Shown piece after piece: positions 5,109-62,884 of a DNA stretch of 64,000 bases. How positions within the stretch are numbered: the first letter of the stretch is position 1; each line of letters starts with the position of its first letter. The stretch lies in IMG/VR virus record IMGVR_UViG_3300045988_163663; one strand, written 5' to 3'. This DNA is from a virus. The notes beneath the pieces are model-generated. The model did not search any database, was not told the origin of the DNA, and saw only the letters and a list, made by a program, of their open reading frames with translations. The position numbers were made by a program, and so were the translations under genes.

Positions 5109-5132
5109 TCCAGCCCATAAGGGGAAAATGAA

Positions 5133-6115: not shown

Positions 6116-6289
6116 TGACTTCTGACGAAAAACTTAAATACTGCATTGAGCAATGGGTCGAAACATTTGATGATTGTGCTTGTTGTCCTCTGATGTTCAA
6201 ATGCCGAGATGATGAAGATATCCAAGGCATTGACTGCATTGAATGTGGTGAAAAAATTATTGATTGGTTAAAGGAGAATGAACTATGAA
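6116..6289 (+). CDS. small Cys-rich protein
   Basis: DDCACCPLMFKC...CIECG; 57 aa. Confidence 0.4.
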
Positions 6290-34290: not shown

Positions 34291-34369
34291 TTTAAATTCT
34301 TGCCAAAATTGAATACTCGAAAATTTATAAAAAATTTGATATAATATATATAGAAAGGATGGGAGAGAT

Positions 34370-36619: not shown

Positions 36620-37431
36620 TAATTATGAATTACCATTCAGATAAATGGGTTATGGATAAGGTAGAAACTCATTTAGAAGCAGCTAATATTAGAAGCGAAA
36701 ATTGGGTTAGTTTAATGGCTTATGGTAGCCAGAATTATGGTCTTGATACTCAAAATTCTGATGTAGATACCCGCCTTATTGTTCTTCCTTCATTTGAAGA
36801 TATTGTATTGAATAAGAAGCCGGTATCTTATACCAAGATTCTTTCTAATGATGAACACATTGATTTTAAAGATATTCGTTTGTTCATTGATTGTTTGAAG
36901 AAACAGAATATGGCTTATCTTGAATGTATCTTCACGCCTTATAAAATGGCATCAAGTACGTATTGGAATGAGTGGCAGGCACTGCTTAATGAGCGTGAAG
37001 CTATTGCACGCTATAATCCTTACAAGGCAGTTAAGACAATGAAGGGTATTGCTATGGAAAAATACCATGCAATGGAACATAGATATCCTACTAAGGCCCA
37101 TCTGATTGATACATATGGTTATGATAGCAAGCAGCTTATGCATCTGCTTCGTATTGAAAGATACCTTGGACGTTATATTGATGGTGTTAAATATGCAGAT
37201 TGTCTTCAAGCCCCAATGGGTGATTATCTTCTTGATGTAAAAAATTATCATTATAATCTTGAAACTGCACGAATTGTAGCCAATACTGCTATTAGTAATA
37301 TTACAAGAGTAGCTGATGATTATTGTTCTAAGACCAAGGATGAAGGTAATGAAGAGCTTGAAGATTTTATGAATAAGATTGTTTATCTTATTATGAAAAA
37401 AAGAATTGTAAAGGAAATGTTAAATGTCTGA
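36616..37431 (+). CDS. Pol-beta superfamily nucleotidyltransferase
   Basis: YGSQNYGLDTQNSDVDTRLIV = GS-x9-D-x-D NTase signature. Confidence 0.5.
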   Translation: MIIMNYHSDKWVMDKVETHLEAANIRSENWVSLMAYGSQNYGLDTQNSDVDTRLIVLPSFEDIVLNKKPVSYTKILSNDEHIDFKDIRLFIDCLKKQNMAYLECIFTPYKMASSTYWNEWQALLNEREAIARYNPYKAVKTMKGIAMEKYHAMEHRYPTKAHLIDTYGYDSKQLMHLLRIERYLGRYIDGVKYADCLQAPMGDYLLDVKNYHYNLETARIVANTAISNITRVADDYCSKTKDEGNEELEDFMNKIVYLIMKKRIVKEMLNV

Positions 37432-37628: not shown

Positions 37629-38408
37629 ATGTTCAAGGACTGGGTTGTCCGAGGCGATTGTCATGGCGATTTCACATGGCTTAACGCAAGAATGTTTAGA
37701 ATTTTAAATCCAAAAGACTACGCAATTATTATCCTTGGTGACGTAGGTTTCAATAGTGGCAATACATTCCGGGATGATATGAAGAAAAAGTATGCAAGCC
37801 AGTTTGGATATTCTATCTATTGCGTGCGTGGTAACCATGAGGTACGTCCTGAGAATGTTGAAGGTATGGAACGCATTTGGGATAGTAATGTCCAAGCTAA
37901 CGTATGGTATGAGCCGGCCTACCCTTTGATTAAATATTTTGATAATTATGGGGTTTATTATCTTAAAACAGAAGATAGAGAATATCGCACGTTGGTCATC
38001 TGCGGGGCTTACTCTGTTGATAAATATTACCGTCTTAAAAATAATCTGCTCTGGTGGGAAGATGAGCAGTTGACTGATGCAGAGAAGTCAGAAGTAGAGA
38101 GACTTATTCGGCAGACTAACAAGCATTTTGACCTTGTGCTCTCGCACACTTGCCCTTATTCTCTTAGGCCAGTTGATAAATTTCTTTCAGTAGTAGACCA
38201 ATCTACTGTAGATACATCTATGGAAGAGTGGCTTGAAACTATTAAGAATATGATTACATATGATGTATGGCTTAGTGGGCATTATCATGTTGACCGATTT
38301 ATCAATAAGCATAATATTCTCTATTTTAATTGCATTGACTCATTAGAGGATATTTTTCTCTGGCATGATAAAATGGATGATACTGTAAATAACATTGACC
38401 GCATCTAA
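37629..38408 (+). CDS. calcineurin-like metallophosphoesterase
   Basis: GDCHGD, ILGDVGFN, VRGNHE motifs. Confidence 0.65.
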   Translation: MFKDWVVRGDCHGDFTWLNARMFRILNPKDYAIIILGDVGFNSGNTFRDDMKKKYASQFGYSIYCVRGNHEVRPENVEGMERIWDSNVQANVWYEPAYPLIKYFDNYGVYYLKTEDREYRTLVICGAYSVDKYYRLKNNLLWWEDEQLTDAEKSEVERLIRQTNKHFDLVLSHTCPYSLRPVDKFLSVVDQSTVDTSMEEWLETIKNMITYDVWLSGHYHVDRFINKHNILYFNCIDSLEDIFLWHDKMDDTVNNIDRI

Positions 38409-39719: not shown

Positions 39720-41363
39720 ATGACACCTTATGAAGCATTGACTGCACAAGATAAGGAATATATTACTGAATATATTGAAACATGGGGTGGCGTTAATTCC
39801 CCAATTAAACTCAAAGCATCTCTTGATTATATCCTTCGAGAATGGAATAAGAGTAAACAAACTCTATTTAATATTTTTGGCGAAAAGTTAATGTTGGAGA
39901 AGGAAATCCAGGTTGAAGATGGAGATAACAAAAAAGTAAGAGAAGTTAATGAGTATCTTTATAGCACTAATCCTGGTATCAATTTTATTACAAATCTTCG
40001 TAGATTATTTGAATCTGATACTACTTATTTTGAAAATACTTATGCAACAAGGCATGCAATATATAATTTAATTCAAGCTTATCAACTTTTTACTAATAGA
40101 GTTGTTAAAGGATTTACTTATCACAATAAAGATGGTAAAATAGTTAAAGTTCCAGAAGGAGCTAAGGTAATGAAAGTTCTTCAGAAAATGGCTAAAGAAT
40201 TTGATTTACCTGATTTTGAAATTTTTCGCAATCATATTTCACGTATTACTGAAGTACGTAAATCTAAAATTAAATTTACTTTGTCTATTCATCCCTTGGA
40301 TTATATGACTATGAGCGATAATGCAAATTGTTGGGAAAGTTGCATGAACTGGACTCAAGGACCGGGAAGTTATCGTGCTGGTACTATTGAAATGATGAAT
40401 AGTCCATTAGTTGTTGTAGCATATATTACTACTAAACCTTATTATCCAGCAAATACTTCTATTGAATGGACTTCCAAAAGTTGGAGAGAATTGATTATTG
40501 TTCATCCAAAAGCTATTTGTTCTGTAAAATCTTATCCTTATTACAATATTGCATTTGATAAAGCTCTTGTAAATTGGCTTGCTAATTTGGTTGAAGAAAA
40601 AACCGAATAGCGTTATAATAGAAAAAAGCCACAAGAAAGTTTAGATAGCTGTTCTTATATCGAAGCTTGGCAAGATAAAGAAGATAAGGATAATCGTTTC
40701 CTGTTGGATTTTGAAACAAATGAAATGTATAATGATTTTGGTAATACAGAAAATTATGGAATTTTTTCAATTAATCCACCAGACAATAAATATCGTACAT
40801 TCGCAATTAATTATTCTGGTTTAATGACTTGTATGTGTTGCGGCGAAAATGGTTATTGGTCTGATGACACTGAAATGGTAGTTTGTGAAGACTGTGATCC
40901 ACCTACTTATTGTTATTGTTGTGGCGAACGAGTTAATACAAATGATGCAATTGAAGTAGATGGTGAATGGGTTTGCGAAGATTGTTATAATGATTTACAT
41001 AGATGTTTATGCTGTGAGGATGCTCATTTTGATGAAGATTTCACTACTGTATTTGTTGGACATATTGACAATCAAACTATTAATATTGATTATGATGAGC
41101 ATTATATTTGTAATGAATGTCTTGCCAATAAAGAATATTTAAAGTATCTAGGAGATACTGATATTAGAGCTGAAACAATTCGATTGGATGGCGGTCCTTA
41201 TTATGGTAGGGTGGCTCTCTTAATTGAAGAAGATGATTTAAATGTAGAGGCTAAAAAGATAATTTCTAATGATCCTTATTCTACTATAATTACTGATTAT
41301 ACTTATGCTATTCGTCGTTATCCTGAGCGTTTTTATAGTTACAATAAGTCAATTGCGATTTAA
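39720..41363 (+). CDS. large HPLDY/SCMNW-family protein with zinc-ribbons (paralog B, TAG-containing)
   Basis: FTLSIHPLDYMTMSDNANCWESCMNWTQG; TAG at 40608 is in frame with downstream ORF 40704. Confidence 0.55.
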
Positions 41364-42879: not shown

Positions 42880-43878
42880 ATGGGTAAAAAAGTTTTAGTT
42901 CCTGATTTTACTGAAAATTGTAGAGGGCTTTTGGAAGGGCTATTTAAGATTAGTGAAGTAGGTCTTTTGAAAGCTCTTGGTGATTTTGTATCTAATAAAT
43001 ATTCTAATGTAGAAATTACAGAAGATTATGTATATGCTGAAGGTAATATTCCTGTTATGCTTATTGCACATGTAGATACTGTATTTAGACAGCCAATTCG
43101 TCAATTTACTTATAATGAGAAAAGAGCAGTTTATAAAGGCAAGGAAGGTCTTGGAGCAGACGATAGAGCAGGTGTTTTTGCGATTATTCAGATTTTACGC
43201 AAAAAGTATAGACCTTATGTTCTTTTTACAACAGATGAAGAAATGGGCGGCTATGGGGCACATGTATTTGTTGAAGCACATCCAGTAGCTCCAAATATTA
43301 AGTACATGATTGAGCTTGATAGAGCTGGTGAAAGAGATTGTGTCTTTTACGAGTGTGAAAATTTTACATTTGTAGATTATGTTGAAAGTTTTGGTTTTAG
43401 GCAAGCATTAGGCTCATTCACAGATATTAGTATTATTATGCCTGAATGGGAAATTGCCGGAGTAAATTTATCAGTTGGCTATCATCATGAACATACTCAA
43501 AATGAAGATTTACATATTAGAACATTGTATAATACAATTAATAAAGTATGTAAAATGCTCGATGATATTGAAAATGCAGATAAATATAAGTTTATTCCCA
43601 GTAAAGAATACCTTCAGTGGATTACATTAACTAATAAATATCATATGCCTTATGATTTTGATGATGATAAACTTCTTAATTGTAGTTTTTGTAATCAGTT
43701 GTATTATGAGTGGGAAGATTTCCCTCTTGATATTGATGGAGTAAAGGTTCATGTATGTCCTGAATGCTTGGCTCTTGACCCTAATATTCATCAATGTGAA
43801 AAATGTTATAATTTATTTTATTCAAATAATATGAAAGAAAGAGTATGTAATAAATGTCGAGTCCCTGTTGTAATTTAA
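42880..43878 (+). CDS. M42/M28-like metallopeptidase with C-terminal zinc-ribbons
   Basis: IAHVDTVF, GADDRAGV, TTDEEMGG metal-binding motifs; C-terminal CSFCN...CPEC...CEKC...CNKC. Confidence 0.5.
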   Translation: MGKKVLVPDFTENCRGLLEGLFKISEVGLLKALGDFVSNKYSNVEITEDYVYAEGNIPVMLIAHVDTVFRQPIRQFTYNEKRAVYKGKEGLGADDRAGVFAIIQILRKKYRPYVLFTTDEEMGGYGAHVFVEAHPVAPNIKYMIELDRAGERDCVFYECENFTFVDYVESFGFRQALGSFTDISIIMPEWEIAGVNLSVGYHHEHTQNEDLHIRTLYNTINKVCKMLDDIENADKYKFIPSKEYLQWITLTNKYHMPYDFDDDKLLNCSFCNQLYYEWEDFPLDIDGVKVHVCPECLALDPNIHQCEKCYNLFYSNNMKERVCNKCRVPVVI

Positions 43879-43958
43879 ATGAAATTAAAGAACAAGTAAA
43901 GAAGGTTATTGCCTATTCATAGGGGCTGGATATTAACCTTTTAAATATTGATAAATTA

Positions 43959-45280
43959 ATGAGCGATTGGGAAGAAAATAAATGTAAATTTTATAGTAGA
44001 CTTCCCGGCAATAAATTAATTTATCAAAGTCATACGCCTATTACAATGTCTATTTCAGAAGATGATAAAAAGGCTGAATTAGATTGTTTTATTGATAATA
44101 TTCGTTGGCGTTATAACTTATTTGAGTTAAAAAATTTTGTTGAAAATAATAGAGAAAATTTTTATAATAATATTTTAAGCGAAGATTATCCAATGGATAA
44201 TGGAACTATTATTCCAAAAGGAATGAAAATAATTAAAGCATTTAAATATTTTGTAGAAGATAAAGAAACTCTTACTGAAATACAAGATAAGGCAAGTATG
44301 CTTATTCAAAATACAAAAATTAATGGATATTTTTGTATGTCAGTTCATCCATTGGATTATCTTAGCCTAAGTGAAAACACACATAATTGGCGGTCATGCC
44401 ATGCACTTGATGGAGAATATCGTGCTGGTAATTTATCTTATATGACTGATAATTGTACAATTATATGTTATATTAAGAGCGAACATGACGCAGTTCTGCC
44501 CAGATTTCCAGATGATGTGCCGTGGGCAGATAAGAAGTGGCGTATGCTTCTTCATGTATCTAATGATGATACTATGATTATTTCAGGTCGTCACTATCCT
44601 TATGAAAGTAAAGGCTTACAAGATTTTGCACTTGAATTGTATGAAACATTTTTTGGGCAAGGATATAGTTTTACTGATTGGTGTCATGAAAAATATAATA
44701 CATTTACAGTAAATGATAAGATTATTTCTAATGATTGTCGTTTATTGCCTACTGGATATATTATGGCCCCAGATATTAAGATTATTATTGATCCAAAAAA
44801 TCCTTTACATTATAATGATCCTCTTCATTCTACTGTATATGATTATTGGTTTAGTATTGCTTATAGTGAACCTTATTGGCATGAAGAAGGCATTCCGCAA
44901 GATAAATTAATTCTTCCAAGAACTCGTACTACTACTAAAGTTAATATAGGACATGATGTAAAATGTTGTATTTGTGGTAAAAATGATTGTGTTTTAACAG
45001 ATACAATGCTTTGTATTGATTGCGAACTTAAATATGGTACAGAAGAAACAGAAGATTTTACTTTCTGTAGAGAATGTGGTAGACGTATCTATATTCCTGA
45101 AGCAATATCATTAGATGATGATGATGGTTATGTATGTCGCAATTGCGGAGACAATTATTAGATATGTGATAATTGTAATATGTATTATGATAAAAAAGAT
45201 TTAATTTATGATGAAGAAAACAATGCTTACTATTGTGAAGCTTGTTATGATGAAATTTTATTTGATAGGGAGAATGAATA
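43959..45280 (+). CDS. HPLDY-family protein with zinc-ribbons (paralog C)
   Basis: FCMSVHPLDYLSLSENTHNWRSCHALDGEYRAGNL; TAG at 45159 read through to TAA 45278. Confidence 0.5.
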
Positions 45281-45589
45281 ATGGCAAAAGGTAGTATTGC
45301 TAAAGATGCTGTTGTAGAAAAAATTGCAGAAGCATTTGGTGAAGATTTCCTTGGATCTTATGATAAAAAGTATTATGTGCGAGCTAAAGAAAATGGACAA
45401 TATATTCAGATTGCAATTAGTCTAACTTGTCCAAAAACGCCTGTTGAATCTTTTGGTTCTATGGATTTTGGTAATAATGAACTTAATTTTGAAGATGGAG
45501 CAACAATTCAGCCTGCGAAAAAGGCTACAGAAATTAGTCCAGAAGAAGAAGAAAATTTAAAAGCTTTAATTGAAAAGCTTGGTTTGTAA
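45281..45589 (+). CDS. hypothetical protein
   Basis: ORF 102 aa followed by hairpin terminator AGAGAAAGTCAAattGACTTTCTCT. Confidence 0.45.
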   Translation: MAKGSIAKDAVVEKIAEAFGEDFLGSYDKKYYVRAKENGQYIQIAISLTCPKTPVESFGSMDFGNNELNFEDGATIQPAKKATEISPEEEENLKALIEKLGL

Positions 45590-45696: not shown

Positions 45697-45978
45697 ATGA
45701 AGAAGATTATAATTCCTCAAGAAGAAGTAAATTATCTTTAGAAATTAAATTATGAAATTGAAGCTAGAAAAAATTTATGTCAATTTTTAATTAGACAAAA
45801 TATTAGAAATAAAGCTTTTGATGATTATCATAATGAGTATATAGAATTATTTGCTGAATATGAATTAGCTAAATTAGAATTAGAAAATAATTATATTAAA
45901 CCAGTAATTGGAAATCAAACTTGTAATTGGAATTTAGATTTTTAGACAAACGAGGTAAATATTGATGTTATTTCCTAA
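45697..45978 (+). CDS. small protein upstream of radical SAM gene (TAG-containing)
   Basis: 93 codons with 2 in-frame TAG; overlaps rSAM start by 14 nt. Confidence 0.4.
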
Positions 45979-47305
45979 GATAGTTAATATTCCTGAAGAA
46001 TTTTCTGATTTTATAAGTCGTTTATATTCTAATGATTGCTTAAATTCTTAGGCTGTATTTACATTAACTTTTTAGGTTACAGATGATTGTTGTCTAAATT
46101 GTGTTTATTGTTATCAAGGACATAAAGGAAAACATAAATTATCCTTTAATACAGCTAAATAGATGATTGATTAGATACTAACAAGAGACAGTAAAGTTAT
46201 TAATTATATTGACTCTTATAAAATACCAGGAGTAGTAATAGAATTTATAGGTGGAGAGCCATTTTTAGAAATTGAATTAATTGATTAGATTACTGATTAT
46301 TTTATTAATAAAATGATTGAATTGCGGCATCCTTGGGCCACTAAATATAAAATTTCAATTAGTTCTAATGGTATTTTATATTTTGAACCAAAAGTACAAG
46401 AGTATATTAAAAAAAATAATGAAAATTTAAGTTTATCAATTTCTATTGATGGAAATAAAAAATTACATGATGCTTGTAGAGTTTTCCCTGATGGTAGTGG
46501 TAGTTATGATAAAGCATTGTCCGCCGCATTACATTATAGCCATAATTATAACAAATGGATCGGGAGTAAAATGACTATCTCTCCATTTAATATAGATTAT
46601 TTATATGACGCTGTTTTAGAAATGATAAACAATGGTTATAGTCAAATCAATCTAAATTGTGTGTATGAAAAAGGTTGGGAACTTAACCATGCCACTACAT
46701 TATATTATTAGTTAAAAAAAATTGCTGATTATTTATTAAATAATGATTTGTGGGATAAAGTTTATTTATCTATTTTTTATATTAATGATGGAAGTAAAAA
46801 TTTATCTAATGATAATTGGTGCGGCGGGAATGGTCGTATGTTAGCCTTAAATTGGAAAGGTAAATATTATCCCTGTTTACGTTATATGGAAGATAGCATA
46901 AGTAATCAGCCAGAATATTATATTGGAGATATTTATTAGGGAATAGGCCAAGATAATTTAACCATCAATAGATTAAAAGATTTATCTGAAATAACAGTTA
47001 TTAGTCAATCTCCTCAAAAATGTTTAGATTGTGAAATTTCTGGAGGATGCTCTTGGTGTACAGCTTATAATTATCAAGAAACAGGTAATGTTAATAAAAG
47101 AGTTACTTATATTTGTGATATGCATTATGCTACAGTTCTAGCTTCTTTATATTATTTAAATTCTATTTTAAAAAAAATAAACTCGAATAAACGATTTAAA
47201 TTTAATGGAGATATGGAAAAAGCATTAAAAATTATCTCTTAGGATGAATATAATATAATAAAGGAGGCAATGACAAATGAAAATAGGCACGACAATAACT
47301 TCTGA
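45965..47305 (+). CDS. radical SAM / SPASM-domain peptide maturase (TAG-containing)
   Basis: DDCCLNCVYCYQ (CxxxCxxC), GGEPFLE, C-terminal CGGNG...C...CLDCEISGGCSWC SPASM-type Cys; 6 in-frame TAG; TGA at 47303. Confidence 0.65.
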
Positions 47306-47927
47306 TAGATTCAATGAATTAAAGAAAAAAATAAAGGCTGAATGTTTACGTCGTAAATATATAGGTAGTGTAAGTTCATATGGAGGGACTTCTTATGATT
47401 ATACTACTTAGCCTAATAATGGAAAAGTTATTTCAAAAGAACATATAACAAAACTGGTAGAACCTATGGCGGCAATAAATATTGAAAATCAGAATGAAAA
47501 TATAAATGTTATTAAAGATGATGATTTAAGTACATTAGAGGCAAAAATTACAGCTTATCAAGCTATGGGATTAACTGATTCGAATACTGGATGTTCAGCT
47601 TATTGCACTGGATTATGTTCTACTAGTTGTAGTGAAAGTTGTGGAGTACAATGTCAGGGAACTTGTTTAGGCAGTTGTAAGAATACTTGCCAAGGAGGCT
47701 GCCAAAACACTTGCAGAGGCGGATGTCGAAGCAGTTGTAGTGGCAGTTGTGATGGATGCAGTGGTTCTTGCTCAGGTGGATGCCAGACTGGGTGTAGCGG
47801 ATGCAGCGGTAGCTGTACAAGACATTGTGCTAACGATTGTACTGGATTGTGTGGAGGAAGTTGTTCTGGATTATGCACAAGTTGTACTGGCACATGTAGT
47901 GGAACTGGTAGGAATGAACCATTATAA
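47277..47927 (+). CDS. Cys-rich C-x3-C repeat protein (SCIFF/ranthipeptide-like)
   Basis: AAGGAGG RBS 8 nt upstream; about 30 Cys in CSAYCTGLCSTSCSESCGVQCQGTCLGSC... repeats; one in-frame TAG at 47409; alternative start 47466. Confidence 0.6.
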
Positions 47928-47973
47928 TTTAAAAACATTTATTGAAAATATATATAATTGTAAAATATATTAT

Positions 47974-48615
47974 ATGTATCTTATACAAAATAATATTTTA
48001 TTTTGTATAAGTGATTATAAAAATATAAACTTTCAAAAATATGATATGGATATTTAGATTTTATCTATTTATGAATATTTATTTCAAAAGTATATTTTAC
48101 ATAAAGATATATTAAAACAATATAAAGGTATAGAATTATATAAAATTATGGAAATTCAAGATAAAATTTTTATTAATAGATATAAATTATTATTGTAGAT
48201 TATTAATAATAATTATAATTTTGATAATTAGTTAATATACACTGATTTTAATAATTTTAATTTTGAACAAAATATTAGTTATATAAATTATTGTTTAAAA
48301 TTACTATTTAATAATTTTAAAAAAATAGATAAACAATTTTGGAAAATTTTAGATTAGATTTATTTTTTAATTAATGGTAAAACTAATTTATTTTTATTGT
48401 TGGGAAATTTTTATTTGAATAAAAGTAATTTATAGCAATTTACTGAAGAAATAAAAAAAATTCCTGGAATTAAAGAATAGCTCTCTTTTAGTTATACAGC
48501 TTTAAATTTAGCTATTGAAATTGATAAAGTTGCAGAAAATAAAAATTATCTTAATGAATTAATTGAAATTATTGATAATCATTCACAAGAAAAAATTTAT
48601 AAATTTGATATTTAA
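47974..48615 (+). CDS. AT-rich hypothetical protein (8 in-frame TAG)
   Basis: No TAA/TGA for 213 codons in roughly 20 percent GC sequence; only TAG interrupts. Confidence 0.45.
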
Positions 48616-49050: not shown

Positions 49051-49199
49051 GCTCTCGTAGCTCAATTGGTCAGAGCCGGCGACTTATCCAAAATTAGTTT
49101 AAATGGTAAAATAGTTTATGCGCAAGAAAGATGTAAGTTCAAATCTAACATTTTGGGCCAAATCGCCAGATGTGGGTTCAAATCCCGACGGGAGCACCA
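49051..49199 (+). tRNA. tRNA with about 80-nt insertion in anticodon loop
   Basis: GCTCTCG-TA-GCTCaattggtcaGAGC, anticodon stem GGCGA(49078)...TCGCC(49163), T arm and acceptor CGGGAGC-A-CCA. Confidence 0.5.
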
Positions 49200-49520: not shown

Positions 49521-50480
49521 ATGACTATTATTGAATTATTTGCGGGAATTGGGACATAGATTTCAGCTTTGGTTAAAATTGATCCAAATATTAGATCAAT
49601 AGGTATTAGCGAAATTGATGAACGACCATTGAAAGCATATAAAGTTTTGAATGGTGAATATAATAATTTTGGTGATATCACAAAAATTGATATTTTACCC
49701 TATGCAGATATTTGGACTTATTCTTTCCCTTGTACTGATTTATCTATTGCAGGGAAGCAAGAAGGTTTTCAAGGAAAAAATTCTTCATTAATTTATGAGG
49801 TATATCGTCTCTTGCTTTCTTCTCCAAAGCCAAAAATTCTTTTAATGGAAAATGTGGCCAATATTTGTAATAATACTTTTATGCCAAAATTTCAAGAGTG
49901 GATTAATAGTTTAGCTGAATTAGGTTATGTATCTAGCTGGAAGAAAATAAAAGCTTATGAATATGGCGGAGCAACTATTAGAGATCGTGTATTCATGGTT
50001 TCAGTAATTTCTCCTTTAAAAAAGTTTATTTTCCCTTTAGCTGAAAATGTTAAAACTACTTTAAAAGATTTTTTAGAGCCAATTAACGAAGAATATTTCA
50101 TTGATAGTTATGATGGCCCAAGTGATATTACTACACCATATTATAATGGAGCTAAAAAACTCTGTGATTATAAAAATGGTGGTCAAGGAAATCGAATTTA
50201 TTCTATATTTGGGCAAGGAGTTACATTAACTGCTTCTGGTGGAGGAAAAGCCGGATCAAGCGGTGGTTTGTATCTTCGTAATAATAGTATTTATAAACTT
50301 ACTCCAATTGAGATTTGTAAAATAATGGGTTGGACTAAAGCAGAAGCAGAAAAGATTTGTTCTGTTTTAACCCCTAGAGAAGTGGGTTTTTGCTTGGGCA
50401 ATGCCATTGATAGAAATGTGTTAATTCATATTTTTAAAGGGATAAAGGAACAATATTATGATGAATTGGGAGAAAAGTGA
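49521..50480 (+). CDS. DNA (cytosine-5)-methyltransferase (TAG-containing)
   Basis: ELFAGIGT(Q) motif I, FPCTDLS motif IV, ENV motif VI, RDRVF motif VIII, GNAI motif X; TAG at 49557. Confidence 0.7.
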
Positions 50481-51084
50481 AAAGAAAGCATTTGAATGGT
50501 TTAAAAATAACTATGATAATGATGCGATTTATCAAGGACGTAATGATTCTACTATTTCAGATATTTATTCTCCTTTATATAATTGCTATATTGAAGTAAA
50601 AGATATTACTAATGGTGCTCGATGCGGGCAATTTACTAAAAGTACCATCAGTAATAACCCATATGCTGAAGCTATTTATTTGGGTAAAAATGATGAAGAA
50701 ACTTGTATAAATTTTGTAAAAGAGCATTATAGAGCTAAACGAGTAGGAGCTTTTATCATTATTAATAATAATAATATTTCTCTTGTGGCTTTTGATGATT
50801 TTTTTAATAATTATACTTTTGAAATTCAAAAACCTTATTGCAAAAGAAGCGGTACTTCATCGGCTCCAATTAAAGATAAAGAAACTCTTTTAAAATTTAA
50901 TACAGCATTTTATCAAGAAAATAATAAAGTTTTTTGTTTTGATCAAAATTTATTTGGTACTTATTGTTCAGTATTTAATCCTTTTGATTATTTTATCAGT
51001 AAAACAACTGGTGAATTAAGAAAAAGAAGTAATACTAATAATATGACTTGGCATATTGTAATTAAAGAAAAATTGAAAAATTAA
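50458..51084 (+). CDS. hypothetical protein, possible PD-(D/E)xK nuclease partner of the methyltransferase
   Basis: ATGATG overlaps MTase stop; SDIYSPLYNCYIEVKD resembles D...(E)xK. Confidence 0.35.
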   Translation: MMNWEKSEKKAFEWFKNNYDNDAIYQGRNDSTISDIYSPLYNCYIEVKDITNGARCGQFTKSTISNNPYAEAIYLGKNDEETCINFVKEHYRAKRVGAFIIINNNNISLVAFDDFFNNYTFEIQKPYCKRSGTSSAPIKDKETLLKFNTAFYQENNKVFCFDQNLFGTYCSVFNPFDYFISKTTGELRKRSNTNNMTWHIVIKEKLKN

Positions 51085-51141: not shown

Positions 51142-51218
51142 GGGACAGTAGCTTACGAGGTCGGAGCATTGGTCTGAAAAACCAAAGGATGGAGGCTCGA
51201 TACCTCCCTGTCCCACCA
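51142..51218 (+). tRNA. tRNA-Phe (GAA)
   Basis: GGGACAG/CTGTCCC acceptor, anticodon loop CTGAAAA, CCA encoded. Confidence 0.65.
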
Positions 51219-51500: not shown

Positions 51501-51548
51501 TAATGAATAATTTTTAATTTCTAATATATTATGAAAGGAGAGATTGTT

Positions 51549-52016
51549 ATGGCTCGTTCAGATATTTTAGAAAAAGAAAAAGAAATTCGTTAGTGGATAA
51601 ACGAAGAAAAATCTAAACGTTATATATGTGAATAGTTGCATTGTAAACCTGAAACTTTAAATTCTTATTTGGAGAAAATGAATATTGAATATAAGGGATA
51701 GCCTTATAAAAAAGGATAGAATAAAAATCCTCGATGTTATAAGCCAGCTATTTATTATATTGATAATCATAAGTATATTAGCTCTTCTGTTTTAAGACAA
51801 AAATTAGTAAAAGATGGATTGAAAAAAGACAAATGTGAAATTTGTGGTATTTCTATGTGGCAAGGAATTAAATTACCTTTAGAATTACATCATAAAAATG
51901 GAAACCATTTTGATAATGATTTAAATAATCTACAAATTTTATGTCCTAATTGTCATTCAATTCAAAATGGAAATAGTGGAGCAAATATCGGTAAATACGC
52001 GGGATTGCTGGAATAG
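51549..52016 (+). CDS. HNH homing endonuclease (TAG-containing)
   Basis: CEICG...HHKNGNHFDNDLNNLQILCPNCH; 5 in-frame TAG upstream. Confidence 0.55.
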
Positions 52017-52083
52017 GTAGACAACTCATCTTTAGACGGTGAGGCCGACAGGTGTGAGGGTCCGAGTCCCTCATCCCGCACCA
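51999..52083 (+). tRNA. tRNA-Leu (TAG anticodon), type II
   Basis: GCGGGAT/ATCCCGC, anticodon loop TTTAGAC, long variable arm, CCA. Confidence 0.6.
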
Positions 52084-52373
52084 ATCATATTCAAAAGAAA
52101 AATTATTGTTGTGATTGTGGAAAAGAGATATGTTTAAAAGCTATTAGATGTAAATCTTGTGCATCTAAATTTAGACAAAATTCTAAATCTCCAGATAGAG
52201 AAATTTTAAAAGAATTAATTAGAACTACACCATTTGTAACTATAGGGAAAATGTATGAAGTTTCTGATAATGCTGTCAGAAAATGGTGTAAAAATTATGA
52301 TTTACCTTATTAGTCATTAAAAATTAAAAAAATTTCTGATGAAGATTGGAAAAATATTTAATATATAAGGTGT

Positions 52374-52469: not shown

Positions 52470-52546
52470 TAAGCCATATGTATATTACTTCTTGGTGTAA
52501 TGGAAGCATACTGCCTGAAAGAGGCGGAGGTATTGGTTCGATCCCG
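52470..52546 (+). tRNA. tRNA-like gene, unresolved
   Basis: T arm ATTGG-TTCGATC-CCGAT at 52522; anticodon-like CTGCC-TGAAAGA-GGCGG; acceptor pairing imperfect. Confidence 0.3.
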
Positions 52547-52894
52547 ATAGAAGGAGTAATTAAAGCTAGGAAATGATAATCGCCTAAATAAATAAAGGAT
52601 TATTATTAAAGATTATTTAGATTAAGGAAGCGGTTAAAGTTATTACTTACTTGATTATAAAATAACATGACCGCAAGACGAGTGTTTGAAGCTTGTCTAT
52701 AAACAAATTCTTCATATGTTGTCTTTTATACTTACTCTTTGGCTGTTTCTTGACATATAAGTAAAAGCGGAAAGGGAGTTAAAGGTTCAGCTAAAAAACC
52801 GGTTTGTTTTTTGATAAGATTTTAAAAATTAGGTGGCAAAATCTTATTTGAGTGACGCTGCTCAAGAGGGTCCGGAACCTCTAAAATGCGATAT

Positions 52895-53027
52895 GCGCCA
52901 GTGGCCAAGTGGTATGGCACCTGCCTTTGTGGAATTGATGTAAGTAGCATTTTAATGTATTGGTTCAAATCCAATATTCCGCACCATAAGCAGGGCAACG
53001 CGGGTTCGATCCCCGCCTGGCGCACCA
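52895..53027 (+). tRNA. tRNA-Gln-like (UUG) with about 58-nt insertion in anticodon loop
   Basis: GCGCCAG...CTGGCGC-A-CCA; D arm GCCAAGTGGTATGGC as in tRNA-Gln; CCTGC(52920)+CTTTG ... AA+GCAGG(52990) gives loop CTTTGAA after removing insert. Confidence 0.5.
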
Positions 53028-53704: not shown

Positions 53705-54328
53705 ATGGCATACATTTATTAGATTATTAATGATATAAATTAGAAAATTTATGTTGGTAAAACTGAATTTTCTATTGAAAAACGTTTTAAAGAACATTGT
53801 AAAGATGCTTTTAGAGAGCGCAATGAAAAACGTCCATTATATTCAGCAATGCGAAAATATGGAGTAGAACATTTTCATATTGAACTAATTGAAGAAACTG
53901 ATGATGCTAATAATCGAGAAACTTATTGGATTGAAAAATTAGGTTCTTTTAAATGGGGATATAATGCTACAATAGGCGGAGATGGTAAAAAGTATCTTGA
54001 TTATGATTTAATTATTGCTTCTTATCAAGAAATTAAAAATATTGAAGAAACTGCTCGTAAATTAGGAATTTCTTCTGATAGTGTAGAAAGAATTCTTAAA
54101 GAAAAAAAAGAAAAAATTTATTCTCAACAAGAAGTTAATTTAGTTAAATCAGGTAAAAAAGTTGCTCAATGTGATAAAAAAACTGGAAAAATTTTAAATA
54201 TATTTCCATCTATTGGAAGTGCAGGTAGAGCTATTAATAAACCTGATATTACTCATATAAGCGCTGTATGTTTAGGTAAAAGACAAAGTGCTTATGGTTA
54301 TAAATGGAAATTTATTGAAAATAATTAA
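53705..54328 (+). CDS. GIY-YIG homing endonuclease (TAG-containing)
   Basis: MAYIY(TAG)IINDIN(TAG)KIYVGKT aligns with I-TevI GIYQIKN...KVYVGS, putting TAG at Gln. Confidence 0.6.
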
Positions 54329-54587: not shown

Positions 54588-54726
54588 GTCATCTAAGATC
54601 CACAACCGCCACGAGGTAGATGATGGGTAATGCTAATAGTGGACAAAAATAAAAATCGGGCAAAGTTAATTAAACTCCTCAAAAATTTTGCTAAATATAA
54701 TAGAAGGAAAAAAGGAGTTGAATTAA

Positions 54727-55359
54727 ATGCCTAGAAAATTAACTCAAGAAGAATTTGAACAAAGAGTTTATAAATGTGTAGGGGATAAATATTTTGTTAT
54801 AAGTGAATATAAAGGAAAATCTAAACCAATAGATTTAAAATGCAATATTCATGATATTGTTTTTCAAGCATCCGCAGAATGTTTTATGCGAGGTCCAAAA
54901 GAAGTAAGATGCTCTTGCCCTAAATGTTCAGAAGAAAAGAAAAATGAAAAATTTTCTGCAAATAGAACTGAATTAGAATGTGCTTATTGTGGAAAGAAAT
55001 TTATTCGTCCAAATTCTAAATTGAATAATTCAAAAAGTGGAATATATTTTTGCTGTAGAGAACATAAAGATTTAGCTCAACGGATAGAGTTTGGTTTGAA
55101 AGAAATTCAACCAAATCATTATGGAAATAATATTGAAAGTATATATACTTATCGTAAAAATGCTTTTAAATATTATCCTCATAAATGTGCTATCTGTGGT
55201 TGGGATGAAGATAAAGATATTTTAGAAGTTCATCATATTAATGAAAATAGAGAACACAATGAATTAGAGAATTTAATCATATTATGTCCTATTTGTCATA
55301 AAAAATTAACTTCTCATAAATATAAATTAATTAATAGGGAAAAAATTATTTCTTATTAA
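54727..55359 (+). CDS. HNH homing endonuclease
   Basis: CAICGWDEDKDILEVHHINENREHNELENLIILCPICH. Confidence 0.6.
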   Translation: MPRKLTQEEFEQRVYKCVGDKYFVISEYKGKSKPIDLKCNIHDIVFQASAECFMRGPKEVRCSCPKCSEEKKNEKFSANRTELECAYCGKKFIRPNSKLNNSKSGIYFCCREHKDLAQRIEFGLKEIQPNHYGNNIESIYTYRKNAFKYYPHKCAICGWDEDKDILEVHHINENREHNELENLIILCPICHKKLTSHKYKLINREKIISY

Positions 55360-55677: not shown

Positions 55678-55751
55678 GGGGACATAGTTTATGGTAGGAA
55701 AACGTTGAATTTAATTCAAAGTCGAGGGTGCGATTCCCTCTGGCTCCACCA
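55678..55751 (+). tRNA. tRNA with anticodon loop ATTTAAT (UUA), shortened 15-nt anticodon arm
   Basis: GGGGACA-TA-GTTT..AAAC, TTGA-ATTTAAT-TCAA, T arm GAGGG-TGCGATT-CCCTC, TGGCTCC-A-CCA; one acceptor mismatch. Confidence 0.35.
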
Positions 55752-55885
55752 TTTATGAAAGACAATACAGCAATTATAAATTTGCTTTGGGAGCCGTGTG
55801 TTGTAGGTTCGAGTCCTACTGTCTGGTTGAAGATCGGATATAGCGTAATTGGTAGCGCAACGTATAAAAATTGTCTTGTTAATAT

Positions 55886-57053: not shown

Positions 57054-57336
57054 ATATATTTTAAAGACAGTAGGTTATAAGTTGCTCTGGCCGGCTTGGA
57101 CCATTAAAACCAAATGCTTAAATTAAAATTCCATTTAAGAAATTTTCGGTCCAACAGGTATAGAGCAATATAAAATAATTTTAAATATGAAAGGAGAAGG
57201 ACAATATGAAAATGTTTATTCTTTCATATAAGGGCGGCAAAGATGGCGGCGATATTGACAAAGAAGATACTTCCAAGTCAACAGGCGGCTGGGATGGCGG
57301 CTCTATAGATGATGATTAAAGAAAGGAGAACACAAG

Positions 57337-58410
57337 ATGGCTGAAATTATTAAGTTAAGACGCGGTAAATCAACCAGTTGGTCTAAAAAGAATATAATTC
57401 TTGCAGCTGGTGAAATCGGCGTAGAGCTTGATACACATTAGATTAAAGTCGGCGATGGTTCAACCCCTTGGAATGAACTATCTTATGTAGGCGGAACTAA
57501 AGTTGTTAATGTTCAAGAATACACTGACAATCCAGCAGTTGTAGATGGCGTGCCTTATCAATCTATTGATGTAGCATTTATGAAGGCTCCAGCTGGAAGT
57601 ACAATTCGTCTTAATGCTAACTTTGATAACAGTGTTTCTATTGATAAAGAATTAACTATTGAATTAAATGGTAATGATATTATCAATAATGAAAAAACTC
57701 CAATAGATATCAAAGTAGGCGGCGATTTAACTATCAAGGGCCAAGGCACTATTGAATGCAATAAAAATAATAATGCCGCAGTTTTTAATAATGGTAATAT
57801 TACTATTAATAATGGTAAATTACAACGTACTACTGACGTATCAGGTAATGGCTATTATACTGCCGTTAATCATGGCACTATGATAATCAATGGCGGCATG
57901 TTTATGAGCGGCGGTGAATTTTCCAGTATGATTGAAAATGGATACTGGGATTATAATGCCGGTAATACTACAAACGGCTATGTTCAAGGTCAAAATGCTG
58001 AAATGCCTACATTAACTATTAATGATGGTACATTCGCTGGCGGCTTATATGCTATAAAAAATGATGATAATGCTGTTTTAAATATTAATGGCGGCACATT
58101 CTATAATACTATTCTTGCTAATGGTAAGTCATTGACTATCACTGATGGATATTTTGAAAATAGTAAACCAAGTCAAGGTGAATATAATTTATATCTTCGT
58201 AAATTAAGTGAAGATATAAATCCTCAAAATACATATATCAGTGGCGGCACATTTATTACTGCACAAGATAGCAATTTCAAAGTTGAAGGCGAACCGCATA
58301 TTGAAATTAGCGGTGGCCGTTTTAATAGAGAATTAGATCCTTCTTATCTAGCTCCTGGCTATAGACAAGTACTTGTCAATGGCTTCTATACTGTCTAGAA
58401 GGAGGAATAA
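57337..58410 (+). CDS. tail-fibre-like protein with shared N-terminal module (TAG-containing)
   Basis: MAEIIKLRRGKSTSW...GEIGVELDTH(TAG)IKVGDGSTPW; beta-helix-like GG repeats; TAG at 57439 and 58396. Confidence 0.5.
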
Positions 58411-58413
58411 TCT

Positions 58414-58929
58414 ATGGCTGATATCATCAAGTTCAAAAGAGGTCGATCAACTACATGGCGCGAAAAGAACTTATTACTTAAGGATGGCGAGCCTGGATTT
58501 GAATTAGATACTCATAAACTGAAAATTGGTGATGGTAAAACCTTATGGAATGATTTACCATATATCGGTGGCGAAAGTGGTACAATTGATCTTCCTGATA
58601 ATGTAATGGAATTTTTAGGCACAGTTGATACACTTCCAGCTACTGCTGAAGATGGAGAAATGTGTATTTATGATGGCAAATTATATATTTATGATGGTAA
58701 ATGGACAACTACAGAAACTTCTTCTTCAGCACAAAATTCTTTCAATTCTTTAGTAGATGCAATTAACTATATTACTTAGCATAATTGTGTTGGTCAAATT
58801 GTATCTATCTTTTAGAATAATAAATGGTTGCCTTATATTGTAGATGTAAATAATAATCTTGTACCTATTCAATATGGAGAAGATCATTATGATATTCTTA
58901 ATGGCGGCAACGCAAATACTCTTAATTAA
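58414..58929 (+). CDS. tail-fibre-module protein (TAG-containing)
   Basis: MADIIKFKRGRSTTW...ELDTHKLKIGDGKTLW; two in-frame TAG near 3' end. Confidence 0.45.
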
Positions 58930-58951
58930 TTTTATAGGAGGAAAATAATTT

Positions 58952-60169
58952 ATGGCTGAAAATATTCTTAATACTCGCATTCAAGTATTAAATGACACGG
59001 CTGAAGCTCTTAAAGCAAAAGGTAGTGCAGTCCCAAAAGCTGGTGAAATTGTTTACGAGAACGATACTCGTAAAATGAAAATCGGTGATGGTACTACTAC
59101 TCTTGAAAACTTAAAATATTTTGGTGGCGAAGCCGCTCAAAATTTTGAAGCTACTCCAAAAGGTGAGGAAACTGATGTTCAGGCTATTACTCGTGTTGTA
59201 GCTTCTGCAGAACTTCATAATGGCGATACTGCTATTGTAAAGCGTGTTATTACTGGCGATAAGACTTCTTATACTGCTTACGTATATGACGGTGAATGGA
59301 AAGCTATGGATGGCAATTATCGTGCTGATAATGTTTATTTTGATGATGACATTACCTATACTGTTGCTATTGGCACTTTAGCTGAGCCATCTGGTTCTGC
59401 TAAATTTGCAGCTAAAGGTAAGAGCGTTGAACAGGTCCTTTCTACCTTAATGGCCAAGGAAGCTAATCCTTCTAAGTCTGATCCTGCTGTTAGTTTCAGC
59501 TCTACTAGCGGACTTGGTACATTTGAAATTGGCACGAAGAAGAATTTAACATATACAGCAGCTCTATCTGCTGGTAGCTATACTTATGGTCCAGCTACTG
59601 GTATTACGGCTCAGAGTTGGAGTGTAAAATGCACTGGTGTTGAAGATGTCCTTGATACTGCTACTGGTTCTTTCGATAATGTTGTTGCTGAAGCAACAGC
59701 TAAAAAAATTACTGCAACCGCAACTTATGGCGACGGCACTATTCCTAAGACCAATCTAGGTAATTCTTATCCTGCTAGCCAGATTAAGGCAGGCTCAGCA
59801 TCTAAAGATAGCAATGTCCTTTAGGGTGTCCGTCATATGTTCTATGGTCCTATGACTACTGATGCAGCTCTTGATAGTACTACTATTCGTGGATTAAAAC
59901 ATGAAGCTGCTAGTAAAAAGCCTATTACTACATTTGGTGCAGGTGCTGGAGCAAAGAAAGTTGTTATTGCTTGTCCTGCTGGATATAATGTAACTAAGGT
60001 TCTTATGCCTAGTGCTATGAATGCTGATGCTACTGCTAACTTTGTAAAGCAAGCTGGTACTGTTAATGTTGAGGGTGCTGAAGGATATACTGCAGTTCCT
60101 TATACTGTTTGGGTATATTAGCCCGCCTCAATTGATAGTACTGAAACTTATGCTGTTACAATTGGTTAA
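58952..60169 (+). CDS. tail-fibre-module protein (TAG-containing)
   Basis: MAENILNTRIQVLND...KMKIGDGTTTLENLKYFGG; TAG at 59822 in frame with ORF 59837; ends TAA 60167. Confidence 0.5.
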
Positions 60170-60193
60170 TTTATAAAGGAGGAATAATATAAT

Positions 60194-62884
60194 ATGGCTA
60201 CTATTTTAAAAGATGCTGCCTATATGGCTCTTCCTATGAATATCAAGCGTGGTAATCCTATCCCTCTTGATACTACTGCTGTATGGTACGATAAAACTGA
60301 ACTAAATAAGTATGCAGCTTCTGGTGCTACTGCATATGTTGGTCAGATTCTAACATTATGCGCCGATAATAAGTGCGAAGCTTATATGATTTCTAATGAA
60401 GCTGGTACATTAATTAAACTAGCTTCTACAACCGCTTCTGGTGACCTTGCTGGCGATGTTGCTACTCTACAAGGTCAAGTTACAAATCTTATTTCTAAGG
60501 TTGGTAAAGCAGCTGATGGTGAAGTAGCAGCTACTGGTCTATATAAAGAAATTGCTGATGTTCTAGCTATTGCTAATGGCAAGGTTACTTCTGTTAAGGC
60601 AGCTGATAAGTCCATTATGGTTGGTGGCAATGCTACTGAGCCTACTGTTAAGGTAGCTATTGCATCTGGTGAGGATAATGCTCTTTCACTTGCAGCTGAT
60701 GGTCTGAAGGTTGTTATTCCTGAAGTGACCGTGCCTGAATATAGCATGAAGAAGCTGGATGTCGCTACTGAGGGCATGTCCGCATCTTATCAGCTAACTA
60801 AGGATGGCACAGCTATTGGTGCAGTTATCGACATTCCAAAAGACATGGTTGTTAAGTCTGGTTCTGTTCAGACATTTGCAGCTGGTGAAGTACCCGCTGG
60901 TGTTACTGAGGCTGGTACATATATTGTATTAGTTCTAGCTAATACTACTAATGATAAATTATATATTAGAGTCAATGATTTAATTGAATATGTCACCTCT
61001 GGCTCTGCTGCAGATGATATGGTATTCATCAATATTGATCCTAAGACTCATAAGGTAACAGCAAAAATTACTGACGGTAGCATCACTGAAGCTAAACTAG
61101 CAAAAGCTGTTACTGATAAGCTCGCTTTAGCTTCTTCTGCTATTCAGAAGGTCGAATCTGGTACTGCTAATGGCACTATTGCCGTTGATGGTACTGATAT
61201 TGCTGTCACTGGACTAAGGAGTGCTGCATATACCGATTCCACTGCTTATGATACTGCTGGTACTGCTGCTGGTATAAAGACAGCTCTTGAAGGTGCTGAT
61301 GCTGATAAGGCTGATGCTCTTACCATTAAGGGTGCTAAGAAATATGCTGAGGAAAAAGCAACTGCAGCTCAGAGTGCTGCTGAAACAACTGCAAAGGGCT
61401 ATGTTGATGGCCTAAATCTTGCTGATAAAGCTGTTACCAAACAGCTCGTTTCTGCCGTTACGCAGACTAATGGTCAAATTGCAGTTATTCGCCGTGAACT
61501 AGTTGCTGATGATATTCCCACTCTTGGTATTTCTAAAATTGATGGTCTTCAGGGTGCTCTTGGCGCTAAGTAGGATACCGTCGTATTTGATGGTGAATAT
61601 TCAGCAAGTAATAAAGCTGCTACAGTAAGCACTGTTAATACTGCTGTTGATAATTTACGTCATACTGTTGATGGTAAAGGTAAAGATATTGATACCCAAG
61701 ATAGTCAAACTATCCATGGTGCAAAAATTTATGCTGATGAAGTCAGTAAGGCTACTCTTGGTTAGGCTAAAACTTATGCTGATAGCTTAGTCGGTGATAG
61801 TTCTGCTATTGCTGGTCGTGTAACTACTCTTGAAGGCAAAGTTGATGTAGCAAAGGTTAGTACTGCTATCTCTACTGCTAAGAATGAGGCTATTGAGGCC
61901 GCAGCAACAGATGCCGCATCTAAAGATACTGCTTTAAAGACTGAGATCCTTGGGGACGGATATACTGGTACTGTAAAGGAAGCTTATGACCTTGCTAATA
62001 AGAAAACTACTATGACTGAGGTTGAAGCTAAGGGCTATGCTGTTAAGACTGAAGTTGATGCAGCTGTTGCTGATGCAAAACAAGCTGGTACTGATGCTCA
62101 GACTTCTGTTGATACATTAAGCGGTAAAGTTGGTACTATTCCAGTAGGTGCTAAAGCTACTACTGTTATTGGTTATGTAGATGAAAAAATTGCGGCTATT
62201 CCTTCACAGGTTAATTATACCGTTACTGCTGATGTTAGTAGTCCTACTGGCATTGCTAAGCGTTATGTTCTTAACCAGAATGGCAGTGAGATTGTAACTA
62301 TTGATATTCCTAAAGATATGGTAGTTAGCTCTGGTACTGTTGAGACTAAGGCTGATGCTGGTGTATGGGGTGTTGCAGGTACTTATCTAGTCCTCACTCT
62401 AGCTAATGCAACCTCTGATAAGGTATACATTAATGTTGGCGACCTTATTGAATATGTAACTAGCGGCTCTTAGGCTGGTGATATGGTTGAAATCAAGATT
62501 GATGCCGACCATAAGGTCACTGCCGTTATCAATGATGGTACGATTACAAAGGCAAAGCTAGCTTAGGCTGTACAAGATAGCCTAGATAAAGCTGATACAG
62601 CACTATAGGCTGCCGATCTTGCACCGTATGCAAAGACTGCTGATATTAAAGCTGGCTATGTTGCAAAAGAAGAGGGCAAACAGCTAATGACCGCTGCTGA
62701 AAGCACTAAATTGGCCGGTATTGCTGCTAATGCACAGGTCAACGTGATTGAAGTCGTTAAGGTTGGCGGCACTGCTCTTGAAATTGCTGATAAAGCTGTT
62801 AATATTGAAGCAATCAGTACTGATCTATTAACTCAAGGTGCTAAAACTCTTATTCTCAATGGTGGCACCGCTGCTTCTCTTTGA
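60194..62884 (+). CDS. large structural/tail fibre protein with internal about 100-aa repeat (5 in-frame TAG)
   Basis: 2691 nt = 897 codons in one frame; repeat IDIPKDMVV.SG.V...GTY.VL.LAN.T.DK.YI.V.DLIEYVTSGS at about 60830 and 62290. Confidence 0.55.

Follow-up and report, generated by a model that had tools for sequence, protein, structure and literature searches.

Does a tRNA gene that is broken within its anticodon loop by a second, tRNA-like structure still give rise to a functional tRNA and, if so, to which one and by what route? The question is raised by positions 52895-53027 of a 64,000-nucleotide stretch of viral DNA, the whole of which is referred to here as the window. To our knowledge, bacterial-type tRNA genes are interrupted only by self-splicing group I introns. 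The window is phage-like and AT-rich (35% GC), with nearly all genes on the + strand, and the locus lies in a tRNA array (49.0-56.6 kb) interspersed with a GIY-YIG/NUMOD1 endonuclease gene (53705-54328), an HNH endonuclease gene (54727-55359), a second, weaker HNH match (51531-52361) and a C5 methyltransferase gene. A megablast search with the 9-kb tRNA array returned no match among GenBank phages, and no relatives were recovered in a search anchored on the protein encoded at 50458-51084; the related phage contigs on which much of the following rests were retrieved with the tail-fibre-like protein encoded at 57337-58410 as anchor.

Architecture of the interrupted gene and its insert

The initial annotation described at this position a single tRNA gene whose anticodon loop is split by an element that has an acceptor stem, T arm and CCA of its own, a description that the present analysis bears out. 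Positions 52895-53027 comprise a complete tRNA with a 58-nt insert in its anticodon loop, and the outer parts are as the annotation gave them. The outer acceptor stem is formed by GCGCCAG (52895-52901) and CTGGCGC (53017-53023), followed by A-CCA, the D arm GCCAAGTGGTATGGC occupies 52904-52918, the T arm 53000-53016, and the anticodon stem, CCTGC (52920-52924) paired with GCAGG (52990-52994), encloses 65 nt. The 5' exon (52895-52928, + strand) of what is identified below as a tRNA-Lys(UUU) gene holds the acceptor 5' strand, the D arm, the anticodon-stem 5' strand and loop nucleotides 32-35 (CUUU). The 3' exon (52987-53027, + strand) runs from loop nucleotides 36-38 (UAA) through the anticodon-stem 3' strand, the variable loop, the T arm, the acceptor 3' strand and discriminator A73 to the CCA. 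Between them, on the same strand, the insert occupies 52929-52986; its earlier estimated length of about 58 nt was correct, and the limits then proposed (52930-52987) have to be moved 1 nt to the left. In its intron mode ARAGORN also reports a single 133-nt tRNA with a 58-nt insert, the Met-CAU register that it chooses being heuristic and contradicted by the uninterrupted allele described below, and in its default mode it misses the gene. Both the MFE and the centroid fold of the full-length sequence contain the outer cloverleaf with an inner three-way junction nested within it (z = -2.2), and the same nested arrangement occurs in eight independent contigs from several assemblies. In an alignment of five distinct sequences 98.9% of the proposed pairs are formed, compared with 38-49% in slid controls. 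The tRNA-in-tRNA arrangement is not a chance resemblance.

The insert, GTGGAAT ... ATTGG-TTCAAAT-CCAAT-ATTCCGC-A-CCA, spans exactly the distance from its own acceptor base +1 to its own terminal CCA. It consists of a 7-bp acceptor stem (52929-52935 with 52976-52982), a D-like hairpin (52937-52951), a T arm with a UUCAAAU loop (52959-52975), a discriminator A (52983) and CCA (52984-52986). The covariance-model check that had been proposed for it gives a positive result, with the insert alone scoring 33.0 bits against the Rfam tRNA model (gathering threshold 29; E 4.5e-6; model positions 1-71). In that alignment the small hairpin takes the place of the D arm, and the anticodon arm alone is deleted, 1 nt replacing 15. 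The insert is, to judge from this alignment, a tRNA stripped of its anticodon arm, and a role as a decoding tRNA was rejected because that arm and its 7-nt loop are missing. A permissive Rfam scan of the insert found the tRNA match only, with no ribozyme and no intron among the hits. Nor do the MFE and centroid folds contain a bulge-helix-bulge, a motif in which 4 bp of helix lie between two bulges of 3 nt where exon and intron meet; the inner stem is flanked in both by three unpaired nucleotides on the 5' side and six on the 3' side.

Sequence variation among the copies indicates how the insert has been maintained. Across the five distinct sequences the inner acceptor stem is 100% paired, with compensatory changes at three of its seven pairs and none broken; G-C has become A-U at two positions, and A-U has become G-C by way of a G·U intermediate seen in the related contig L001. 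The T stem has undergone one U-A to U·G change, and the D-like hairpin is invariant across the alignment, so is uninformative on covariation. Because G and U pair in RNA whereas the corresponding bases of an inverted repeat in DNA would be mismatched, and because the insert always has the same orientation, these data argue for selection acting on the insert as RNA rather than as a DNA inverted repeat. As to its origin, the insert matches the 3' end of the tRNA-Val next to it at 89-93% identity over its last 28 nt, and the T arms of the insert and of the tRNA-Phe(AAA) of the array are the same; its source was probably the set of tRNAs that the phage itself encodes. Free-standing copies of this insert, or of the second insert considered below, were absent from the window and from the related contigs examined.

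It could be argued from the resemblance to tRNA-Val that the locus represents two adjacent degenerate tRNA pseudogenes, as the initial annotation had allowed, or a tRNA 3'-half duplication of the att-site type left by an integrating element. The first Rfam match at the locus (52895-52983, a weak 30.7 bits) might be read in the same way, being a hybrid of the 5' half of the outer tRNA and the T arm of the insert. Within the insert, however, the 3' acceptor strand has the insert's own 5' strand as its partner and not the outer one, the inner stem covaries, the nesting is kept in all eight contigs and no target-site duplication is present at the insert. Furthermore, comparison with an intact gene shows a clean 58-nt indel, which rules out adjacent pseudogenes. 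Taken as a whole, this explanation is exceedingly improbable.

Identity of the outer tRNA and the question of TAG recoding

When the window sequence is considered alone, splice registers giving CAU, UAU, UUU or UUG all produce a plausible CU-NNN-AA anticodon loop. The register is set by comparison with relatives, of which L001 and L005 contain the interrupted gene and L003 has, at the same position of the array, an uninterrupted tRNA-Lys(UUU) (5086-5160 of that contig; Rfam 77 bits) with the 7-nt anticodon loop CUUUUAA and anticodon UUU. This allele is identical to the L005 exons save for one D-loop base, and the two contigs, which are colinear and 93-95% identical over approximately 690 nt upstream and 240 nt downstream, are distinguished here by one exact 58-nt indel. 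Since the insert begins with G, ends with A and is flanked by T on both sides, its register is unique. The empty site is CUUU|UAA, with the insert falling between U35 and U36, and on the strength of this empty allele the outer gene is identified as tRNA-Lys(UUU). The acceptor end can be compared with those of the two isotypes. In bacteria A73 is an identity element for Lys, whereas tRNA-Gln typically has a weak 1-72 pair (U1-A72 or A1-U72) and G73. In the outer gene the pair is G1-C72 and the discriminator is A73 (the A at 53024), A73 being present in all three tRNA bodies that host the insert, whereas the genuine tRNA-Gln(UUG) of the relative L012 (8460-8534) has A1-U72 and G73. Isotyping in which the joined exons were compared by BLAST with annotated phage tRNAs gave a mixture of Gly, Gln, Lys and Asn and was discarded in favour of the empty allele because the outcome is biased by the loop that is chosen.

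The initial annotation had instead joined CTTTG to AA, giving a CUUUGAA loop, and proposed an interrupted gene of tRNA-Gln(UUG) lineage that might be the source, or a relative, of a suppressor reading TAG as Gln. The D arm GCCAAGTGGTATGGC is indeed of the Gln/Glu type, and TAG recoding is plausible in this genome. To make such a join, however, the RNA would have to be cut 1 nt within the inner acceptor stem on one side and 1 nt beyond the inner CCA on the other, and the Gln assignment is contradicted both by the CUUUUAA loop of the uninterrupted allele and by the G1-C72 pair and A73. In a third host body, that of the metagenomic contigs L018 and L021, the same anticodon loop is combined with a D arm of the classic Lys type. 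Relatives have a normal tRNA-Gln(UUG) and an uninterrupted tRNA(CUA) as genes of their own, and no register of either interrupted gene, at 52895-53027 or at 49051-49199, yields a CUA anticodon. A Gln lineage for the locus is thus scarcely credible, and the earlier lead requires correction: 52895-53027 is not the source of the TAG-to-Gln suppressor.

The premise that TAG is recoded fares better than the suppressor proposal built upon it. Many short ORFs merge into long ones if in-frame TAG is taken as sense, examples being an ORF of 898 amino acids with five in-frame TAG codons (60188-62884) and one with eight (45959-47305, also given as 45965-47305) that encodes a radical-SAM protein, and recoding in the window genome is therefore plausible. 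In-frame TAG codons are clustered in some ORFs, structural or tail-fibre-like and radical SAM (45959-48615 and 57316-62884), and absent from others. No tRNA(CUA) was found within the window; that of L012 (9032-9106) has discriminator G73 and lies beside the normal tRNA-Gln(UUG).

Several other features of the array and its surroundings were recorded. A tRNA at 55678-55751, found by Rfam (48.5 bits) and missed by ARAGORN, has the anticodon arm TTGAA-TTTAA-TTCAA, and hence either a 5-nt loop or, with the last pair open, the 7-nt loop AUUUAAU with anticodon UUA, which on that reading would decode the stop codon UAA. This tRNA is invariant in L001, L003, L005 and L016, and in L004 and L014 a fusion links its 5' portion with the 3' end of tRNA-Met; the 'tRNA-Lys with intron' that ARAGORN reports in relaxed mode at 55678-55827 is spurious, the real gene being 55678-55751. 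A tRNA-Phe with the unusual anticodon AAA (52485-52557; Rfam only 33.7 bits) is kept in relatives and lies beside a normal tRNA-Phe(GAA) (51142-51218). At 55795-55865 there is a weak YrlA (Y-RNA-like) match (29 bits, E 0.005), near which an orphan T arm, GTAGGTTCGAGTCCTAC, is followed by an apparent tRNA 5' half, TCGGATA-TA-GCGTAATTGGTAGCGC; they could be fragments of tRNA genes or a permuted piece of one. A sub-threshold match to an F. prausnitzii HDV-like ribozyme (54588-54655; 24.5 bits, E 0.34) is probably due to chance, although its start at the last base of tRNA-Ala, and so at a tRNA 3' end, is suggestive. In L012 a strong RAGATH-33 RNA match (6133-6245; 137.9 bits, gathering threshold 120.4) lies inside the tRNA array, about 320 nt upstream of that contig's interrupted Ile-like gene, and RAGATH-33 has no match within the window. 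Elsewhere in the window, three paralogous ORFs of 475-572 amino acids (32626-34344, 39720-41363 and 43854-45281) have in common an HPLDY...SCMNW...G.YR.G...EMMNSP core and Cys-rich C-terminal repeats, and none of them has a Pfam match.

Distribution of the insert and a second interrupted gene

The insert, which contains no ORF, occupies one and the same position in three tRNA-Lys(UUU) bodies. Exon identity among these is 69-73%, against 86-97% for the inserts, although the use of a 21-nt core of the insert to find several of the copies exaggerates this contrast in part. Outside this core 29-35 of 37 positions are still identical, and L005 was recovered through the protein anchor. Matches to the core in two further metagenomic contigs (L015 and L019) lie inside unrelated ORFs and were dismissed as chance. 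The window and L018 are 93% identical in the upstream flank, 76% in exon 1, 97% in the insert, 68% in exon 2 and 92.5% in the downstream flank; L018 and L021, by comparison, are 72% identical upstream, 97% in exon 1, 98% in the insert, 95% in exon 2 and 59% downstream. The constancy of the insert while exons and flanks are reshuffled, together with the empty allele, leads us to infer that it behaves as a mobile or selfish intron. No homing endonuclease correlating with the insert was found among the window and related contigs: the HNH ORF that adjoins the interrupted gene in L005 also adjoins the empty allele in L003, and GIY-YIG homologues co-occur with both states. It was also observed that, between the window and L018, the tRNA-Lys exons (68-76%) are more diverged than both the flanks (approximately 93%) and the insert (97%). 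This suggests replacement or fast diversifying evolution of the tRNA-Lys(UUU) exons, perhaps under pressure from anticodon nucleases.

A gene of the same design lies at 49051-49199 (+ strand), where a tRNA-Ile(UAU)-like gene is interrupted by a 73-nt tRNA-like insert (49088-49160). The latter, CCAAAAT ... ATTTTGG-G-CCA, lies between CUUAU and AA. The outer gene scores 42.7 bits with Rfam, with a 76-nt loop insert, and its body resembles phage tRNA-Ile/Met(CAU); the insert alone scores 35.5 bits against the Rfam tRNA model and has a canonical D arm, with loop AAAUGGUA, and a degenerate anticodon region. This second insert follows a similar pattern to the first, being present in seven genomes, within two different outer bodies, with copies that are 91-96% identical. 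No uninterrupted allele was found among the relatives, and the UAU (Ile) register is inferred. The types that ARAGORN assigns to 49051-49199, Trp(CCA) or SeC(UCA), were rejected as heuristic registers, and its default run misses the gene. Covariation within the second insert is ambiguous, since RNAalifold prefers two hairpins and the sole covarying column fits two partners. A 9-mer common to both inserts, GATGTAAGT, lies in non-homologous arms and was treated as coincidence. The points of insertion into the anticodon loop differ, being 35/36 in the Lys gene and 36/37 in the Ile-like gene, and the base at -1 is U in both.

A possible route of excision and its relation to known systems

The Lys insert keeps a 12-bp acceptor/T-stem stack, a T loop and a 3' RCCA, with U at -1. 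Minihelices made of an acceptor stem and a T arm are substrates of bacterial RNase P, which makes use of the 3' RCCA, prefers U(-1) and leaves 3'-OH and 5'-P ends. The explanation that we favour, tentatively and at somewhat short of an even chance, is that the locus encodes a phage tRNA-Lys(UUU) from which the insert is excised by tRNA end-processing enzymes, a phage ligase then rejoining the exons. In this scheme ordinary end-processing enzymes would read the inner acceptor/T-arm minihelix. RNase P would cut 5' of the inner G+1 (52928/52929), leaving exon 1 with a 3'-OH, and an endonuclease of the RNase Z/BN type would cut just past the inner CCA (52986/52987), giving exon 2 a 5'-phosphate. 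The acceptor, D and anticodon stems of the outer tRNA would keep the exons in place until a phage ATP-dependent RNA ligase closed the nick, with its 3'-OH and 5'-P ends, in the anticodon loop. This would yield a functional tRNA-Lys(UUU) reading AAA codons, with the predicted spliced junction GGCACCTGCCTTTTAAGCAGGGCAAC, the junctions of the unspliced precursor being CCTTTGTGGAAT and GCACCATAAGCAGG, and the element would thereby exploit host tRNA processing together with the phage RNA-repair kit. As the two genes are interrupted at different loop positions, cuts measured from the inner fold would be the simplest rule. The weakest step of the scheme is the 3' cut. RNase Z/BN cuts just after CCA in some bacteria; in many others, CCA inhibits RNase Z, and precursors that encode CCA are finished by 3' exonucleases, enzymes unable to generate a 5' end for exon 2.

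It could equally be proposed that the insert is an unspliced, selfish, tRNA-derived insertion, which has left the tRNA-Lys gene dead or yielding only a small tRNA-like RNA and tRNA halves, these being released by RNase P and 3' processing with no subsequent ligation, so that the phage would rely on the host tRNA-Lys. The mobility of the insert, evident from its presence/absence polymorphism and mosaic pattern, the uncertainty of the 3' cleavage and the frequent dispensability of phage tRNA genes all agree with this proposal, which we nevertheless consider unlikely. The outer helices are paired in every insert-bearing copy (eight copies, three backgrounds), and such changes as occur in the exons lie in loops or are compensated, many being compensatory, so that no copy contains a disruptive change. 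The interrupted gene is, moreover, the sole Lys(UUU) gene at each locus, and AAA, with 51 occurrences per 1000 codons, is a top codon, among the commonest of the phage. The recurrence of the same design at 49051-49199, the constant orientation and the exact tRNA-like ends likewise point to a role in the transcript. These observations are suggestive of an outer tRNA-Lys gene that is still in use, although the intact exon structure could also reflect recent insertions into live genes.

The splicing model draws upon a ligase, and the window encodes a candidate. The ORF at 19108-20517 (+ strand), with an N-terminal OB fold and an adenylyltransferase domain, matches PF09414 (30.9 bits, cut-off 27), the OB domain PF21189 and PHROG 968 'RNA ligase' (E 1.9e-53), and contains a KVHG motif (KxxG); its match to TIGR02306 is below the equivalog cut-off, and it has no sequence relative among solved structures. 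These features place it among DraRnl/Rnl5-like ATP-dependent RNA ligases, with predicted activity as the sealing enzyme. Candidates for the healing of RNA ends are a P-loop kinase (AAA_33 or polynucleotide-kinase-like; 29473-30018, + strand) and a calcineurin-like metallophosphoesterase (37629-38408, + strand; PF00149 51.3 bits; PHROG 1649), the latter a possible 2',3'-phosphate end-healing enzyme. A Pol-beta nucleotidyltransferase of the RlaP family (36625-37431, + strand; PF10127 31.4 bits, cut-off 23) belongs to a family linked to RNA-ligase-associated RNA repair (PMC12776372). The repair genes are dispersed, and genes for a SAM synthetase (26046-27203) and the radical-SAM protein (45965-47305) lie nearby. 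It should be emphasized, however, that the presence of the kit alone does not tie it to the insert. Many phages have an RNA ligase and a polynucleotide kinase with which to counter anticodon nucleases.

That the window contains a full heal-and-seal set, which 3'-OH/5'-P ends would not need, raises the alternative that the insert is a true intron removed by another route. The cuts might be made by a phage endonuclease, by a small self-cleaving activity, or by RNase P with another nuclease, and cyclic-phosphate/5'-OH ends would be healed by the kinase and the phosphoesterase before ligation. The array is rich in nucleases (GIY-YIG and HNH), which is in keeping with this alternative. In contrast, the ends of the insert coincide with tRNA +1 and CCA in both genes despite the differing loop positions, the insert has no Rfam ribozyme match, and 58 nt is far below the size of a group I intron. 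A route of this kind thus seems quite improbable.

No known class of tRNA intron looks like the insert. Group I introns, such as those of cyanobacterial tRNA-Leu(UAA) and Azoarcus tRNA-Ile, similarly interrupt the anticodon loop of bacterial-type tRNA genes, occur sporadically among close relatives, are more conserved than their exons and have homing-endonuclease genes nearby. They contain, however, a conserved P3-P8 catalytic core and are usually more than 200 nt long (at least approximately 200 nt), whereas the inserts are 58-73 nt, have no group I fold and score as tRNA, with ends set by the tRNA-like fold; self-splicing is implausible. The archaeal and eukaryal introns that are removed by Sen/EndA and RtcB/Trl1 are also short and lie in or near the anticodon loop and, as in the proposed model, are cut by a structure-reading protein or RNP before an RNA ligase acts. 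They differ in having a bulge-helix-bulge and a canonical position of 37/38 (rather than 35/36 and 36/37), and their cyclic-phosphate/5'-OH ends contrast with the 3'-OH/5'-P ends predicted here; no EndA is known from the bacterial/phage setting of the insert. Mitochondrial tRNA punctuation, plant mitochondrial t-elements and MALAT1 mascRNA resemble the insert as embedded tRNA-like folds, with cuts by RNase P and RNase Z of the kind proposed here. In those systems the flanks are never rejoined, whereas the flanks of the insert are tRNA halves that need ligation. The repair of PrrC-cleaved tRNA-Lys(UUU) by T4 Pnkp/Rnl1 involves the same tRNA species and a break in the anticodon loop, and in the proposed model a phage ATP-dependent RNA ligase would likewise do the sealing, through the chemistry of Rnl1 and with accessory healing enzymes. 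The T4 break, however, is inflicted by the host between nucleotides 33 and 34, whereas that proposed here would be programmed at 35/36, and the window ligase is DraRnl-like rather than Rnl1. The split tRNAs of Nanoarchaeum and the permuted tRNAs of Cyanidioschyzon are likewise non-colinear or interrupted in gene architecture, and the engineered 'tRNA scaffold' places foreign RNA in the anticodon arm of tRNA-Lys or tRNA-Met; none of these has a CCA-bearing tRNA-like module inside a natural bacterial-type anticodon loop. In full-text literature searches no account was met of a tRNA whose anticodon loop holds a tRNA-like insert, the papers on 'interrupted tRNA' concerning group I introns or interrupted tRNA synthetases and not such tRNA genes.

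It is conceivable, if still doubtful, that tRNA introns comprise a third class to which the two inserts belong, for which 'tRNA-like intron' would be a fitting name. With neither a catalytic core nor a bulge-helix-bulge, such an intron would owe its exact excision by RNase P and a 3' tRNA endonuclease to its mimicry of a tRNA that lacks the anticodon arm, would leave a nick for the phage repair ligase to seal, and would be mobile among phage tRNA-Lys(UUU) and tRNA-Ile(UAU) alleles. Such an element may also spread at the RNA level, if the ligase inserts a mature mini-tRNA into an anticodon loop broken by a nuclease, and this reverse reaction would account for insert ends that coincide with the ends of a mature tRNA. 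ARAGORN misses both of these genes by default and otherwise types them as Met and Trp; if the class is confirmed, standard tRNA finders would be seen to overlook or mislabel its members, with a resulting bias in inventories of phage tRNAs and of suppressors in recoded phages. The ends of the insert at tRNA +1 and CCA imply a logic in which the universal end-processing enzymes would act as the splicing endonucleases and a repair ligase as the splicing ligase. If this is true, the module would offer a compact, enzyme-defined means of RNA excision and ligation for engineering. It would also constitute a new intron class and give phage RNA ligases a natural role beyond the repair of damage by anticodon nucleases and, since the tRNA-Lys(UUU) exons diverge faster than their flanks, it would link the element to the arms race over tRNA-Lys(UUU).
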